From Eledone cirrhosa (Eukaryota), in the NCBI GenBank assembly GCA_964016885.1, contig OZ024750.1, positions 15,314,001 through 15,378,000 of the forward strand: DNA of 64,000 bases, in the 5' to 3' direction. Below, piece after piece: positions 3,213 to 59,820 of the stretch; the stretch's first letter is position 1, and each line of letters opens with the position of its first letter. Below the pieces are notes generated by a model. That model did not search any database. It was not told where the DNA came from and was given only the letters and a program-made list of their open reading frames with translations. The position numbers were made by a program, and so were the translations under genes.

Positions 3213-6200
3213 GTATAGGTGATGGAATAGTACTGTTGTAGATTTCTATTTTTACTTTATAGTTTTGTAAATATTGTTATTGTCGAGTTTTCAAGAGTTT
3301 CGTAGTAGTTTATATTGAATTACCATGTAGCCAGAAACTCCATGCTCATGAAAATTGTGCACCATTGTGTTTTTATGTGAATCCGTGTCAGCATATCACA
3401 TTAGCTTTACTTATGGTGCTTTTTATGTTTCTTCTGCTGAGGAGGAAGTGGCATGTCAGATGTATCATAGTTAGGTGATGAATATATTTCGTATGTATTG
3501 CGTTACAGGTGTTGTGTAAATTAGTATCAGATCGTGATTGTGTACAGTATGTCGTGTGTGGTTGGTGTAGTATTAATGAACTGCAGATGTGTAAATTATG
3601 AGTTGTGGGGATTGTTGCTGTTTTAGACTCGGAAATCAGTTATGTAAGAGTGTGTATTGTACACATTTATTAGCTGTTAGACTCGTGTATGTGTTATGCG
3701 AGATGCAATATTGTATTCTGTGTTTATTCTACAGGATGAGTGATGTGAACAGAGAGTGTAGTGTTTCAGTGGTATGTTTCAATTGAATTAAATGTGTCTT
3801 GCGTAGGATGTGGGCTATACTTAGAGGACCAATATTGTGGGTATCATCTAGTTCTAACATCTCCAAATACTTGCATCTACTATCTTCTAGTTCCCCCGTG
3901 GTTTCTTCCAATGGCAGTCCTAATCTACTAGAGGCTGTTTTTTCCCTATTTTCCTATTATTCACAGAACATTTGGAAATTCCAAATGCCATACCGATGTC
4001 ATTGCTAAATATATGGACTGTTTTAACCAAAGAATACATTCCACCTGTACAACTTCGTTTTCCACTCTAGCATACTCTTCTGAAGAAAGTTTGTGATGTT
4101 GTCAGCAATTACAAATATCTGCAGGCATTCAACAATCCAAGAATAAGACACCATATTATATGCTTTCCTAAAGTAAAATCCAGACTATAGACATCCTCAT
4201 CATTACCAGGGTTCAGTCGATAATCTTCCCCTTTTGCAGTCCTAACAGTTCGATCATAATTTCCCAGTTCCTGTTGTCGATTTTTCTCCCTGATTTCAAC
4301 TGTAAAAACGGCTTCAGTATTTACTCTAAACTCTCTCTGTTACTCATCTGTAGGTTCCGTTAAACCTTCACTAATCTGAGATATTTATACCTCAGTTAAC
4401 CTACACTGCATCCTAATTACCCTTACTTGATTCATTAGTTTACTTTCTGACACTGAAGATATGTTCTTTTCCATCTCAAAGTCAAAAGTACATCACCCTA
4501 CTCCCCGGCTTCCTTCTAGTTTTGCTCTTTCATGAAATGCAATGAGTGTAGCGTACCTTTTTTTCGTCCACTTGTGTCAAGCTGCGCCACAATTGCTGTG
4601 TGATTGGTTACCAGTATTCCGTACTACCACACTAACGTTTAAGTTCAACTATGTCGAACATACTATACAAGTTCGTGGTCGATGAAAATGTACCAGTGTT
4701 ACACTAATCTAGGTTAATCAACTACATCTTATCTCTACAATTAGTTTTACATGGTGCCACTGTCAGAGAACTCTATCTCAGATCACATATATGTCTATTC
4801 TCATCACCTTAAAATTAGAAACCGATTTGAGAAATCCCATTCAAGATTTTATCAGGAAAGATCTAAAAGATAATAAAAACGAAGTGTTTTAATTGTTGCA
4901 GTATTTTTTCTTTGAATCCTAGAATCAGTTCATAATTGTGGCAATAGGTCTATAGGTCTTATTTTCTTTGTATAATTCCATCATGAGGGAATATATCAGA
5001 ATAAAGAAATCAAAGCGAAAATAAAATGTGTCCAGTTAACCGTGAATAATAATTATTCTATTGACTCATATGTGTAGATATAACACACTTGATTTCATAA
5101 CCATGAAAATATCGCACTGTAGTTTAAGAGGTCAGTGATAATTTTGTTTGATAATATATAAAATATAATAATAAAAAATCAACTTCACGGAAAGCAACAA
5201 TTCTTTAAAATGTAGAAAAAAACCACACGTTAACATTATATCGTTTTCATGATCTATATCTTCTTCAATTTAGTCAGACGAATTTAATTTAATATTGCAA
5301 TGAATAAAGAACTATATAAAATAAATTGAAGTGTGGTATGATGTACAAGATACATCAATGCATATATTGATTACTTATATCGATTCTTAACATACATTCT
5401 ACTCGTATTATTCCTGCATTTATACGTAAATCTACCCGCTGAACCTGACAGTATATCTAACAATGGATTCCTACAATGCCGCTAACATTCACACTATTAT
5501 ATTTGATTGAAGTTCTATTGATAATTACTTTTCACATCGACTCATATATATACACACATACTCACACACCATATACACATGCCCACACATATCGTAGACC
5601 ATGTAACATTGATGTAGCAATATTGATTAGCTTTAGCTTTCTTTATTCCAGTTTACATCTTAATAAATCAAGTAAAAAAAAAATGTTTTTTGAAATACAT
5701 TTATATGCATGATTCTTCGGTTAAGAAAATCATAACTGTAGAAATTATGCCCTTCAAGGGTGTAGTGGAAACCGCAGTAATGTAAAAACTAGGGATGTCA
5801 TAGCATCACAGCATCTATAATAGACACCTAATTTACGAAAGAAGTACAAACATCACAATTCTAATTTAATTCTTTCGCCCAAACATTTGCCTTTTCTGAT
5901 TCTTTGCAGATATTTTTGAAACAAATAAATAGATATGTTACTAATTCTATAGTGTTCGTCTTTGGTGACGAAGAAGCCCTTTGTTAAGTTTGTAGCAATA
6001 TACTAGCAAAACATTTTTATTCCTAGTAAAATTATGGAGACATTGCAACAAATTATTTCACAAATGAAAATAATGATATTACTTTTTTAATAAGAAAATT
6101 TGAAACTTTCACATTTAAAATATTTAAAAGGAATAATGAACTGGTAGGTCTAGAGATCGCTACCCGCTTGTTTTCACGTTATTCGATCACCAATACAAAG

Positions 6201-8809: not shown

Positions 8810-9019
8810 GTTATCAAGACGTTAGTCATCGTGGTAACGATATTTGTTTTATGCTGGCTTCCGCTACACGTCTTCTTCTTAATTCTTGACTTCGAACCAT
8901 TACTGGCTAAAATATCACCCCAAACATTGACCAGCATATACCTAGGAGTTCACTGGCTTGCAATGTCAAACAGTTTTGCTAATCCGATTATATATGGATT
9001 CACAAATGAAAGTTTTCGG
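8810..9019 (+). CDS. Class A neuropeptide GPCR, internal exon encoding TM6-ECL3-TM7 (tachykinin/leucokinin/luqin-RYamide receptor group)
   Basis: Translates to VIKTLVIVVTIFVLCWLPLHVFF...HWLAMSNSFANPIIYGFTNESFR, with the CWxP and NPxxY motifs and the WLAMSNS motif of this receptor group. Acceptor ttttcag ends at 8809 and donor gtaag starts at 9020; 210 nt, phase 0/0. Upstream exons were not found in the window. Confidence 0.93.
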
Positions 9020-9137
9020 GTAAGATTTCAATTTTTGTTGTGTATTTTCAATTGTTGTGGGGGAAGAAGGAACTCTGTCTATCATTTGCAGCTTAAATTA
9101 ATGCATACATTCATACACATACACGGACACACACCCA

Positions 9138-9214
<77 letters not shown>

Positions 9215-9416
9215 ACACACCAAAATGCACAGGCAGAGTGTTTATTTTAAGAAAAACGATGAAGTTTCGTTTACAAGGAGTTAGCTTTTTTTTTATTAAG
9301 GATTGATCTGTTATGCGTGTGTGCATGTATACACATTTCCTGCTGAGTATCATTTAGCATCACAAATATATAATATCACATACATACATACATACATACA
9401 TACATACATACATACA

Positions 9417-15390: not shown

Positions 15391-15445
15391 ACTGCCTGAA
15401 GAGGTCACAGCCAAAGATGGCTGTCACTGAAATATATATAGCAGT
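15391..15445 (+). ncRNA. Minimal type I hammerhead motif (intronic, sense to the GPCR)
   Basis: ACTGC-CTGAAGA-ggtcacagcc-aaagat-ggctgtcact-GAAA-tatata-TA-GCAGT: 5-bp stem I, palindromic stem/loop III, followed by AATAAA and a (TA)n tract. Confidence 0.78.
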
Positions 15446-15488
15446 AATAAACGAAGCTAAATTTTAATCATTTGACTTTTATTTAACT

Positions 15489-24623: not shown

Positions 24624-24718
24624 GGAACAAGTAAGACCCCGACGGCTGAGCTACTACCCTAAGTATTGAGTACTTTGGTGCGTTATGGTCCACCTGGTTC
24701 CTTACCACATTTCCTTCG

Positions 24719-25452: not shown

Positions 25453-25641
25453 AACGAAGGAAATGTGGTAAGGAACCAGGTGGACCATAACGCACCAAAG
25501 TACTCAATACTTGAGGTAGTAGAGTGGGTAATAGGAACCAGTAAGACCCCGACAGCTGAGCTCAAGCCGTTTCGACGGCTAATTCTGGACTGAATTAGCC
25601 GTCGAAACGGCTTGAGCTCAGCTGTCGGGGTCTTACTGGTT

Positions 25642-25683
<42 letters not shown>

Positions 25684-25792
25684 AACCAGTAAGACCCCGA
25701 CAGCTGAGCTCAAGCCGTTTCGACGGCGGCTAATTCTGGACTGAATTAGCCGTCGAGACGGCTTGAGCTCAGCTGTCGGGGTCTTACTGGTT

Positions 25793-25795
<3 letters not shown>
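25453..25795. mobile_element. Palindromic (TA)n-embedded mini-element family A, two adjacent copies (25453-25644, 25681-25795)
   Basis: Arms AGGAACCAGTAAGACCCCGACAGCTGAGCTCAAGCCGTTTCGACGGC and its reverse complement; one arm is extended by about 80 bp to AACGAAGGAAATG. Every end abuts TA repeats. Confidence 0.8.
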
Positions 25796-25852
<57 letters not shown>

Positions 25853-25916
25853 TGTGTGTGTGGGTGGATTTTAGTCTTTTTCATATTTTTAATATATTTT
25901 CCTCTGTATTTTTCAG

Positions 25917-26159
25917 GCTGACCTAGTTAACCTATGCGTGAAAATATTCCCATGCTGCATCTGCTTAAAGAGATTAATGAGACGAAGGATTAGCATGTCG
26001 ACATATGATACGGGTGTGTTCCGTCGTCAAAGTGCAATCCACTACAAGGCGAGAACGCGTCCGGGATTTACTAATTCTACACCAAATGGAAATATGCGAA
26101 CAGCTTTTCAACCACATAAGTTCCACGCCATTGATATGAGAATGGAGCAAATAGATTAA
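25917..26159 (+). CDS. Same GPCR, terminal coding exon (helix 8, Cys cluster, Ser/Thr-rich C-tail)
   Basis: Pyrimidine tract plus tttcag acceptor ends at 25916. Phase-0 join reads NESFR|ADLVNLCVKIFPCCICLKRLMRRRISMSTYDT...MEQID*, giving helix 8, palmitoylation-type cysteines and RRxS kinase sites. Implied intron is 9020-25916. Confidence 0.82.
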   Translation, partial: ADLVNLCVKIFPCCICLKRLMRRRISMSTYDTGVFRRQSAIHYKARTRPGFTNSTPNGNMRTAFQPHKFHAIDMRMEQID

Positions 26160-26407
26160 AATGAACAGTATGCCATTTATCAAAGAAAATTACCGCCACA
26201 CGTATGTCTGTGTTTGTGTATGAGAATGTGTGTGTGAGAGAGAGAGAGAGAGTGATAGAGAGAGAGAGAAAGAGAGGGAGAGAGAGAAAGTGAGAAATAG
26301 AGAATATTTGGTGAAGGTGTGGTAGGTGTATGTCATTATGAGTGTGTGTATGTATTCGTGGGTGGGTAGGTGTATGAATGTATATGTGTATATATATATA
26401 TTATGTG

Positions 26408-26483
<76 letters not shown>

Positions 26484-26539
26484 CAAGAGACGTCAAGCAG
26501 AGGTACAAAAAGTCTTATTGTATATATATATATTATGTG

Positions 26540-26575
<36 letters not shown>

Positions 26576-26603
26576 CAAGAGACGTCAAGCAGAGGTACAA
26601 CAA

Positions 26604-26636
<33 letters not shown>

Positions 26637-26639
26637 TGA

Positions 26640-26688
26640 GATTCTACAGGACTAGAACTGTTTCATTCATTAGAAATCATCAGGAATC
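26640..26688 (-). ncRNA. Type I hammerhead motif, inverted copy of 26706-26754
   Basis: Exact reverse complement of the adjacent plus-strand motif, separated from it by 17 nt. Confidence 0.75.
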
Positions 26689-26705
26689 ACCCATTTCTGA
26701 TCACA

Positions 26706-26754
26706 GATTCCTGATGATTTCTAATGAATGAAACAGTTCTAGTCCTGTAGAATC
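26706..26754 (+). ncRNA. Type I hammerhead ribozyme motif
   Basis: GATTC-CTGATGA-t-TTC-taat-GAA-t-GAAA-CAG-ttctagtc-CTG-TA-GAATC: stem I GATTC/GAATC, full core, stems II and III, GUA cleavage site after 26749. U-U at the base of stem II. Confidence 0.75.
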
Positions 26755-26846
26755 TCATCTATATTAAAACTTTTATACTCTGCTATGTATTGAGTACCTT
26801 ACTTACTCTGGTTACCTCCGATTCAACCCGGAATAACGTACATATA

Positions 26847-26880
<34 letters not shown>

Positions 26881-26911
26881 GTTCAAGAGACGTCAAGCAG
26901 AGGTACAAAAA

Positions 26912-26961
<50 letters not shown>

Positions 26962-27030
26962 TCACATGTATAGCCGAAGGATTTTGTGTACATTAATCAG
27001 AAACACTTGCAAAGAAAATAACTCCAGCAA

Positions 27031-27036
27031 AATAAA
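27031..27036 (+). terminator. Candidate polyadenylation signal of the GPCR
   Basis: First canonical AATAAA I can find downstream of the stop at 26159 (an ATTAAA lies at 26763). Usage is unverified. Confidence 0.3.
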
Positions 27037-27369
27037 TTCATCTTTTGAGACATTCAATTAAAGGATGTCATTTACAGTTCTTAGTAGGTGTGTGTGATTG
27101 AATGCATTCTATATGTGTCATTGTCTCTAATACACTGAGGAGGGGGGGGGGCTCTTTCATTATCTTAATGGTGACAAGTAGATGTGAGATACAGGCCGCT
27201 AATCTATCATAGCTAATATTTTCGGAAAAACTGGAAACATTTCATGAAATCTTCGAAAAACTGGAAACATTTCATGAAATCTTCGCAAAATATAGTACCC
27301 TATTTTAACACATGGATTTAGATTTAGACTTCGAAACCCAACAGTTTGACCATATACACATGCGTAATA

Positions 27370-27559
27370 TTTGTTTCTACTCTTGGCACAAGGCCAGCAA
27401 TTATCCCAGTGTATTACTGGTACTTTATTTTATCGACCCCGTAAGGATGAAAGGCAAAGTTAACTTCGGCGGGATTTGAACTCAGATCATAAAGGGCCGT
27501 AACTCTTTGCTGCAAAGCATGACGTCTGACCCTCAACCGATACTGCCAATCCACCACCC
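27370..27559 (-). mobile_element. SINE family 1
   Basis: Full-length copy; TSD ATGCGTAATATT on both sides. Confidence 0.85.
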
Positions 27560-27618: not shown

Positions 27619-27930
27619 AAGAAAGAAAGAGAGAAAGAAAAAGAGAGAAAGAAAGAGAGAGAGAGAGAAAGAGAGAGAGAGTGAGAGGGGGGGGGGAGAG
27701 AGTAGTATCAACATCAAAGGCACACAGAAAGACAGTTACTCTCTAGACCGATTCACGCTTCACTCACCATCTGACGCGGGAGTTACGAGTGCTGGTCTGT
27801 GCTTGGTTTACGGTATTTTCTGAATGTTTTGTTTACGGGTTCAGGCAATCAATGGTCGTATTTGCACACACACACATACATACATACATACATACATACA
27901 TAGATACATACATACATACATACATACATA

Positions 27931-28882
27931 CATGGTGGCTGCCAACTCGTTTTCGAGTACGGCCACTACTTTATATCCATGTAGGAGAACCCCTACCGAT
28001 GCGCTGAACGAGTGTGACTTTTTAGTCCAGCCAGCGACTTGAAAACTCTGGTACAAACACTACACTTGTGACAATTACTGACACATAGTGCTGGGCCCAT
28101 GGTACATACATACATACATGGTGGCTGCCAACTCGTTTTCGAGTACGGCCACTACTTTATATCCATGTAGGAGAACCCCTACCGATGCGCTGAACGAGTG
28201 TGACTTTTTAGTCCAGCCAGCGACTTGAAAACTCTGGTACAAACACTACACTTGTGACAATTACTGACACATAGTGCTGGGCCCATGGTACATACATACA
28301 TACATGGTGGCTGCCAACTCGTTTTCGAGTACGGGCACTACTTTATATCCATGTAGGAGAACCCCTACCGATGCCCTGAACGAGTGTGACTTTTTAGTCC
28401 AGCCAGCGACTTGAAAACTCTGGTACAAACACTACACTTGTGACAATTACTGACACATAGTGCTGGGCCCATGGTACATACATACATACATGGTGGCTGC
28501 CAACTCGTTTTCGAGTACGGCCACTACTTTATATCCATGTAGGAGAACCCCTACCGATGCGCTGAACGAGTGTGACTTTTTAGTCCAGCCAGCGACTTGA
28601 AAACTCTGGTACAAACACTACACTTGTGACAATTACTGACACATAGTGCTGGGCCCATGGTACATACATACATACATGGTGGCTGTCAACTCGTTTTCGA
28701 GTACGGCCACTACTTTATATCCATGTAGGAGAACCCCTACCGATGCGCTGAACGAGTGTGACTTTTTAGTCCAGCCAGCGACTTGAAAACTCTGGTACAA
28801 ACACTACACTTGTGACAATTATTGACACATAGTGCTGGGCCCTTGGTACCATGTGACGACAAGTGCAGAGAGATCTCCAGAT
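27931..28882 (-). repeat. Five 186-bp tandem copies of an RTE-type LINE 3' end
   Basis: Units start at 27931, 28117, 28303, 28489 and 28675. The minus strand encodes CSVCTRVFKSLAGLKSHTRSAHR* (C-terminal zinc finger), then a short 3'UTR with a CTCG-aaaa-CGAG hairpin and an (ATGT)n tail. Confidence 0.8.
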
Positions 28883-29099
28883 ATAAAGCATACATACACA
28901 CATACATACATACATACATACATACATACATACATACATACATACATACATACATACATACATACACACATACATACATACATACACACACGTACGTGGA
29001 TGCATGGATATATTCTTCTTTGCATACTTGCCAACTAATGATCTTCAGCATGTTACCCGCCTATCATATACATATATATATAGATATATACATATACAC

Positions 29100-46258: not shown

Positions 46259-46313
46259 ACTGCCTGAAGAGGTCACAGCCAAAGATGGCGGTCACTGAAA
46301 TATATATAGCAGT
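46259..46313 (+). ncRNA. Minimal type I hammerhead motif, second copy of the 15391 family
   Basis: Near-identical ~125-bp element (46241-46365 vs 15372-15497) with the same core, ending in (TA)n. Confidence 0.75.
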
Positions 46314-46392
46314 AATAAACGAAGCTAAATTTTAATCATTTGACTTTTATTTAACTTTATTTTATATAAATATATATATATATGCATATATA

Positions 46393-58705: not shown

Positions 58706-59820
58706 CTAATGTATTGGTACGCGATGGGGCCCACCCACAGCCCCGGCGGACAGAATGGAGAAGGCGTTTCTCCGGAGGACGGCAAGGGAGACGCGCTGGA
58801 AAAGCCACTCCAACTCGCGGGGCTCACACCTGCGGCTGGCCAGCTCAGCGCCTATGGTGGTGAGTAAGGAGGTAGCCCTGGGGCCGAGGACACCAGAAGT
58901 TTCCACTGCCAGGGGAACAACCGCAAACCTGTCGGAGAGCGACCGGTATTTGAGGAGTTTGGCCCCCTCATCCCGACGTGCAGCAGAACCTGGGTCAGTC
59001 GCAGACTGCACCAGGTTGCGGCAGCAGAAAGTGTCGGTGCAAGTGGCATCCCAGACGAGGGGTTTGCCACCGCGGAACGGGAAGATGGTCATGCCATCTG
59101 GCCTTTTGCCGTCCCCTCGATCCAGCCCCATCGGCTCGAGCTGGGAAGGGAAGCCTGCAGCGTCCAAGCCATGCTTAATGACCTCGTTGAGGGCAGTATG
59201 GCGTGGAATGCGGCCTGCACCGTGGCGACAGGAAAGCGGGTGGAGGCCGAAAGAGTCCACGGTGGAACCGCAGCGACACTGGCGTGGCTGGCAGATCCGG
59301 AGGCCGAGCTTCAGGGAAACGCCGAATCGCAGGCTATAGTTGTCTAGCTGCGTGCCAGTGGAGAAGGAGGGCAGAGCATGGAGCCAGGCACCACTGTGGG
59401 GTTTGGAGGCCGCACGAAAACAAGCAAGGCGGTGCTGGTCGAGCTGGCGCGTGAGCCTATCTGAGGCCGGGCTGCACTGGATGGCATCCCAAGTGCGTTG
59501 GGGGGACTTGACGTCAACAGGGGGAGAAGGAGGAGGGACGTCTACTGGGCTAAGTCCCAGCCGGTCTCACGTCTCACAGGCGGCCTCACGTTCTCTGAAC
59601 ACAGAGGGTTCTGTTGTGTTTTGAAGAACCCTGCTGACGAAGACGCGGCACAAGATTACCGACGAAAGATACGCCGGCAAAGCTAGTGAGATCAGGGACC
59701 GGAGGCCTAGGCCACCATACCTGACCGGTAAAGTGGCCTGTTGCCACCCTATGTCGTCAAACTTGACGTTGCATATCCCCTCGGCTCCTGCTCGGATACA
59801 AGTATCGAGGTCAGCGAGGA
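58706..59820 (-). mobile_element. CRE-like non-LTR retrotransposon, 5'-truncated (RT thumb, CCHC knuckle, restriction-like endonuclease)
   Basis: GC-rich island encoding ATLPVRYGGLG, SGAWLHALPS, CRCGSTVDSFGLHPLSC, RH, KRPDG, LVWDAT and PLAVETSG. One in-frame TGA near 59568. Confidence 0.85.

Follow-up and report, generated by a model that had tools for sequence, protein, structure and literature searches.

A hammerhead ribozyme motif lying beside its own antisense copy, downstream of a GPCR gene in a 64,000-nt stretch of the Eledone cirrhosa genome (the window), is very probably a young and short insertion of a high-copy Penelope-like retrotransposon with Hydra-clade motifs, placed in a TA microsatellite that likely belongs to the GPCR 3′ UTR; the mirror arm is likely a by-product of the insertion, and the hairpin formed by the two arms is predicted to keep the ribozyme off. 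Rather than a regulatory switch, the locus is likely an insertion of the ordinary kind. For the family as a whole, the copy number, the parent element, the TA targets, a rule that joins one long to one short end, and a pile-up of 5′-ends at the ribozyme edge were observed directly. The features of the host gene and the insertion are listed here in window coordinates.

8810..9019 (start approximate), plus strand: GPCR exon, from TM6-TM7 to NESFR (Pfam 7tm_1, E 1.2e-11), followed by the donor GT at 9020
25917..26159, plus strand: last GPCR coding exon, 80 aa and stop, from translation and an X23 spliced contig
26160..27400, plus strand: probable 3′ UTR, its end likely past the AATAAA at 27031, from X23 contigs on both sides of the insertion
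26481..26906, no strand: a unique flank segment present in three local copies (26481, 26573, 26881) set among TA tracts, the second and third flanking the insertion
26632..26688, minus strand: antisense arm, exact complement of 26706-26762, an inverted short-ended copy with the hammerhead motif and no tail, beginning in (TA)15
26689..26705, plus strand: 17-nt spacer, whose sequence reads as filler from the junction together with the final bases of the 5′ edge of the element
26705..26755, plus strand: type I hammerhead motif with U·U at 10.1/11.1, predicted cut 26749/26750
26756..26770, plus strand: remainder of the pseudo-LTR to the family's short end (short-ended copies end here or a few nt earlier), containing the ATTAAA at 26763
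26771..26843, plus strand: tail of ~70 nt, then (TA)n, corresponding to the leader before the ORF in the parent element
27031..27036, plus strand: first AATAAA past the stop, through which an X23 contig passes unbroken

The segment 26630-26688 is the exact reverse complement of 26706-26764, i.e. a perfect inverted repeat of 59 bp, or 57 bp without the flanking TA. This bore out what the initial annotation had described, namely a complete sense hammerhead 547 nt past the GPCR stop and ahead of the AATAAA at 27031, with an exact inverted copy 17 nt upstream that permits a ~57-bp hairpin; the coordinates held, and the perfect 57-bp arm was recovered by sequence comparison. The type I core residues (CUGAnGA, GAAA, UH and three helices) are all present in the motif, with a 6-bp helix I (26705-10/26750-55), CUGAUGA at 26711-17, GAAA at 26730-33 and a GUA triplet at the cut. 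The hammerhead call stood in that its core is complete, but helix II has just 3 bp on a U·U pair where 10.1/11.1 is canonically G-C, helix III has 4 bp, and an Rfam scan of the window returned 0 matches at the gathering score. The same U·U takes the place of G-C in 54 of 54 distinct variants of the family.

The host gene is a class A GPCR, spliced and expressed, with the PrRP, substance P and NPFF receptors as its closest solved relatives. No sequencing run was labelled RNA, and X23 was treated as RNA solely on its splice-joined contig, a 1,600-nt sequence that aligns to 25910-26201, has a further 1,259 nt upstream unaligned, and leaves the intron without depth; its two mismatches to the assembly are accounted for by splicing to the 9019 donor and by a variant at 26117. 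Run X1 gave 0 records aligned to the locus. The X23 cover reaches 26201 plus 49 nt into the repeats, and resumes at 26973-27254 (depth 12) and 27256-27400 (depth 34), in contigs that carry no strand information. Because X23 covers unique sequence on both sides of the element and through the first AATAAA, the GPCR 3′ UTR probably spans the element. The earlier placement of the motif in the GPCR 3′ UTR is likely correct given the spliced contig and the two-sided coverage in this probable RNA run, but no X23 contig bridges the insertion, which is documented by the assembly only. In the same gene, read-through of the splice donor over 9020-9250 continues FRVRFQFLLCIFNCC..., resembling an alternative helix 8 with a cysteine-bearing tail; a second C-terminal isoform of the receptor by intron retention is possible from its sequence, and X23 has the spliced form only.

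It is unlikely, in our judgement, that the palindrome is absent from the receptor mRNA, through earlier polyadenylation or an insertion-free allele, or that it is a product of assembly in a microsatellite-rich stretch. Such a reading would fit the spacer positions 26692-26695, which no contig of X22, X23 or X24 covers (X22 and X24 being apparent DNA runs), the flank that is present in triplicate, and the ATTAAA variant at 26155 that overlaps the stop codon (a second lies at 26763); X23 moreover differs from the assembly at 26117 and at five places in 27139-27154, and may represent a haplotype without the insertion. However, the contig filters drop short repeat pieces, so the coverage hole proves nothing, the unique sequence past the element is covered by X23 through the AATAAA, and the palindrome obeys the long/short rule of its family exactly, which an assembler would not produce by itself.

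That family is large. A 35-nt core had 12,882 exact matches genome-wide (control 0), with unequal strand counts of 7,425 forward versus 5,457 reverse, and a 27-nt anchor further 3′ had 11,895 matches that were balanced at 5,932 versus 5,963; the strand imbalance of the core is probably a search quirk, so that the true number of cores may exceed 12,882. Pairs whose arm motifs stand back to back, no more than 13 nt apart, were counted at 2,022 loci (control 0), a lower limit that omits wider junctions, the window's own among them. A genome-wide DNA search returned 636 candidate places, 40 of which were scored, and its 43 near-full matches had 96-100% identity. The layout was followed in the first 100 of the 12,882 cores, all within the first 53 Mb of contig C1 and representing 85 loci: an adjacent, back-to-back antisense core was present at 21 of the 85 and some antisense part at 27, and each of the 25 inverted pairs within 10 kb combined one long with one short end (25/25; p ~2e-8 if the ends are independent). 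The window conforms, its sense arm being long and its antisense arm short. Short junctions differ from locus to locus when compared with the 17-nt spacer of the window, the copies terminate in (TA)n, and the flanks at the loci inspected are TA tracts. In helix I, a compensatory A-U to C-G change was found in 4 of the 54 variants, and loop 2 has 9 variants, under a search pattern that itself favoured an intact helix II or III; the hammerhead motif looks maintained across the family, which reflects the element's need and not the receptor's.

The parent element was reached through cores lying 4-8 kb apart, which led to ORF-bearing copies. One of these, L106, opens with a front pseudo-LTR and the tail, which ends 47 nt before the ATG of a 713-aa frame; a long microsatellite-like region follows, and then a second pseudo-LTR that lacks the tail. 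A motif scan of the frame found DKT, YRDD, CxCX5C, YIG, CxxC and CxH, with the endonuclease C-terminal; related frames occur in L108, L109, L110, L112 and L113. L106 has the single RT/GIY-YIG ORF between pseudo-LTRs, and the window copy is without it. Pfam gave a weak GIY-YIG hit on the ORF (E 0.019, under the cut-off) and no RT match, and a PDB sequence search with the ORF returned nothing meaningful; a scan of L106 for GxK[F/Y], a motif not conserved in the Hydra clade, was empty, with a stretch FGFKT nearby. The Penelope-type origin proposed at the outset was supported by this parent, which matches the sense arm in the window at 138 of 139 nt, and the family would be an EN+ Penelope-like retrotransposon with Hydra-clade protein motifs, an assignment made by motifs. 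Two other readings of the family were considered and rejected. A Neptune-like ORF upstream of one copy, L043, was set aside as the parent, because among its 20 best relatives just one, L043 itself, has this hammerhead in the 1.5 kb that follows; a ~1-kb non-coding element, suggested by the fading of 11 of 11 compared copies into microsatellite, was dropped since ORF-bearing copies exist.

Described for the Hydra clade by Craig et al. (2021, PMC8557442 section 11; here and below, the comparisons refer to parts of the cited papers) are DKT, CxCX5C, CxxC and CxH motifs and (TA)n targeting, and an inverted 5′-truncated copy with a one-sided tail is usual in such insertions (PMC8557442). Our family shares the C-terminal GIY-YIG, the DKT, the CxCX5C linker, the CxxC and CxH, the hammerhead in the pseudo-LTR, the (TA)n targets, the inverted 5′-truncated copy and the tail on one side only. 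It differs from that account in having RWR (L106, residue 38) where the Hydra clade has RWK, a tail of ~70 nt versus 30-40, a parent of ~5.8 kb with a long microsatellite-like 3′ UTR versus <3 kb, a copy number of >10,000, and, in the window, a copy without ORF. Like the animal non-LTR retrozymes (bioRxiv 10.64898/2026.07.22.740005), which in the part consulted are described as short type I hammerhead repeats that encode no protein and are akin to Penelope-like pseudo-LTRs, the window copy is short and non-coding; unlike their head-to-tail tandems of units each bearing a hammerhead, it is a stump with its two copies head to head, and it shares 99% identity with the end of an element that has an ORF. 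Elsewhere in the genome, L025-L027 (G000:C9, 42924779-42925513) form a head-to-tail array in which every unit of ~200 nt comprises a complete short copy and 22 nt of flank, a retrozyme-like layout. Among the listed titles and abstract openings on octopus hammerhead ribozymes none about this family was found; the supplements of PMC8557442 and PMC4209133 may list it.

The window copy appears very young. Its sense arm (26705-26843) differs from the front pseudo-LTR of the intact element L106 by 1 mismatch in 139 nt, and its two arms are identical to each other, which argues for a recent insertion. The insertion site is marked by the triplicated flank, a 26-mer of which occurs 3 times in the genome, all at this locus. 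Target-site duplication as a routine trait of the family was rejected, since a flank duplication was seen in just 2 of the 27 palindromic loci tried, the window and one that is purely microsatellite, with 1 locus unparsable; the triplication is rare in the family and may reflect a long target duplication or local slippage.

Other repeats accompany the insertion in the window. The last GPCR intron holds, at 25531-25797, two near-perfect palindromes of a second TA-flanked repeat family, further copies of which lie at 24635, 34691, 35097, 56103 and 62660; these copies are probably the termini of another Penelope-like family. A third family is represented by two hammerhead-like motifs, at 15391-15450 and 46259-46320, that are nearly identical and have a long helix II and a helix III made of TA only. 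A tandem array with a 186-nt unit, of which four copies are 99-100% identical and a fifth is partial, occupies 27917-28960, possibly near the UTR end. On the minus strand at 58706-59566, a 286-aa frame resembles what we take to be the C-terminal part of a non-LTR retrotransposon protein.

Fold prediction was clearly in favour of the hairpin. For the 132-nt hairpin RNA the folding energy is −96.9 kcal/mol (z −20), which none of 200 shuffled sequences matched; when the antisense arm is included, forcing the ribozyme fold costs a predicted 72.7 kcal/mol, and the ribozyme helices have pair probabilities of 0.000 after rounding. The earlier idea that the hairpin sequesters the ribozyme is supported by these predictions, whereas the companion idea that the RNA can fold either way had the balance wrong: in the model the RNA is not bistable, the hairpin being favoured by ~73 kcal/mol, and the ribozyme is predicted to be kept off. 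As the antisense arm would be transcribed first, it would zip onto the emerging sense arm, so that the mRNA would not self-cleave; the 57-bp duplex carried by the GPCR mRNA could be acted on by ADAR or Dicer, as a passenger effect.

The motif on its own was also predicted to fold poorly as a ribozyme. In an isolated 51-mer, the ribozyme fold reached −5.3 versus −5.6 kcal/mol for a competing fold (probability 0.03), and given 140 nt of context the predicted probability of helix I was ~0. Its partly palindromic loop 3 favours dimers (helix III −12.8 kcal/mol in the dimer versus −1.4 in the monomer), as in the Penelope-like hammerheads of Cervera and de la Pena (2014, PMC4209133), which are likewise type I motifs in pseudo-LTRs with thousands of lone copies and for which opposite-strand pairs 100-700 bp apart are already reported. 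The motifs described there differ from ours, in which helix III is 4 bp, helix II is only 3 bp and U·U stands for the highly conserved G10.1-C11.1; on the kinetic cost of losing that pair, no answer was found in the parts of the literature consulted, including PMC544870.

These properties bear on a neutralised insertion kept by selection, in which a sense hammerhead standing alone would have been purged for cutting the receptor mRNA, while a masking antisense arm, still made by the insertion, lets the copy pass the filter. The predicted complete block of the ribozyme by the hairpin would suit it, as would the hammerhead in the 3′ UTR of mammalian Clec2d, which lowers a reporter by 80% (PMC2950038); X23 depth shows no drop between the coding exon (22.6) and the far UTR (12-34), a weak hint since contig depth is flat. 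The Clec2 motifs, too, occupy a 3′ UTR position after the stop and ahead of the poly(A) signal, but as described in that source they are conserved across mammals, discontinuous and active, whereas ours comes from a recent repeat insertion, is masked by its antisense arm and is predicted only; the ribozyme fold in mRNA context that a Clec2-type effect requires carries here the 72.7 kcal/mol penalty given above. The lone motif may, besides, be harmless, considering its U·U at 10.1/11.1 and its poor predicted folding as a 51-mer and in context, and related Penelope-like hammerheads do not cleave as lone monomers (PMC4209133) or cleave only with the element's protein (PMC11167929), as far as the parts consulted describe. 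X23 also contains a lone copy with the unique flank of L121, at depth 105, that runs just past the cut site, in strandless data. We consider selective retention quite improbable on this evidence, and the proposal that the antisense arm is an adapted antidote was not supported, since such arms arise from the insertion process at 2,022 or more loci and this copy is of very recent origin; in UTRs, masked copies could still be favoured by selection over lone sense ones.

Heavy A-to-I editing is established in coleoid neural RNA. An editing-sensitive switch had been suggested, in which the hairpin would be opened by A-to-I editing and the ribozyme released, with an effect on how stable the receptor mRNA is; the perfect 57-bp duplex is a plausible ADAR substrate and the motif is intact. 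Simulated editing, which used proxies and not inosine parameters, did not tip the fold: even when every one of the 21 A in the antisense arm was edited, the hairpin stayed ahead by 61 kcal/mol when A was replaced by G and by 13 kcal/mol when A was made non-pairing. Editing of the sense arm would strike the conserved core adenosines 26714, 26717 and 26731-33. X23 has no A>G difference in the unique flanks, a result that covers the flanks and not the arms, where thousands of copies pile up. With no sign of age or tuning in a young copy whose layout is repeated at more than two thousand sites, we regard the switch as highly improbable; if true, it would connect editing with ribozyme cleavage in a new way. 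Chance alone is expected to put 13-34 such palindromes in 3′ UTRs (one per 1.5 Mb, with the UTR total assumed to be 20-50 Mb), and for this reason the palindrome has no regulatory importance as a device.

For the insertion reading, the 5′-ends of the family indicate how the palindrome may have formed. Of the 100 copies in the C1 sample, which is blind to cuts inside the core, 47 reach beyond the upstream TATA region; the other 53 are truncated no more than 30 nt from the core, and in 49 of these the end falls 0-8 nt before it. Among 30 copies anchored 3′ of the ribozyme and read by eye, 14 were long and 16 truncated, and the truncated ones ended at the ribozyme edge (11), inside the ribozyme (4) or twelve nt upstream (1). 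Helix I begins 30 nt downstream of a TATA box, in what we take to be an initiator-like motif, and these two signals suggest that transcription may start there; the copies extending past the TATA box came from longer RNAs. The start of helix I also reads as a splice acceptor, an alternative to the transcription start, and the Penelope of D. virilis has a splice acceptor at that spot, with an internal, TATA-less promoter (PMC4209133, PMC2377424, as far as consulted); no shared upstream exon was seen by eye in the junctions of the back-to-back pairs.

A model of two-sided priming and run-off at the transcription start is inferred from these ends. The element endonuclease would nick both strands of a TA tract, and each nick would prime reverse transcription inside the element RNA, one at a far site (the tail end) and one at a near site (no tail); both cDNAs would then run off the RNA 5′ end, likely the first base of helix I, and their ends would be joined with a little filler into a palindrome. 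The lone copy L121 (G000:C1, near 19367055) has at its 5′ junction ~20 nt of target DNA duplicated in inverted orientation, with a 5-nt match to helix I, which suggests that cDNA ends may join by microhomology.

The nearest biochemical counterpart is the Poseidon-clade element PAc of Anolis (Frangieh et al. 2024, PMC11167929), whose protein cuts and extends both DNA strands and starts reverse transcription at two internal RNA sites that bracket the tail, on an uncut RNA template. Our model has the same two start sites around the tail, the same use of both strands and an uncut template, and a hammerhead at the pseudo-LTR/ORF junction; it differs in clade and in the tail, which lies inside the ORF in PAc and before it here. 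The part of the PAc account consulted draws no connection from these start sites to inverted pairs or a fixed 5′ stop, and Craig et al. (PMC8557442, part consulted) list the formation of tandem and inverted ends as unresolved. A limited check found no description of a 5′-end pile-up behind a TATA box in the parts of the Penelope-like element literature covered, and this pile-up is what the present analysis adds.

We tentatively propose, with somewhat less than even confidence, that both nicked strands prime on the element RNA, always one at each of the two sites, and that the cDNAs run off at a transcription start on the hammerhead edge, so that the element would have left thousands of self-masked ribozyme palindromes, perfect dsRNA in any transcript that receives one, as dead-end products of its own mRNA. 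The long/short rule and the fixed 5′ stop would tie the two-site, two-strand priming seen in vitro to genomic inversions, and the family may be of some use for learning how Penelope-like elements make their tandem and inverted ends.
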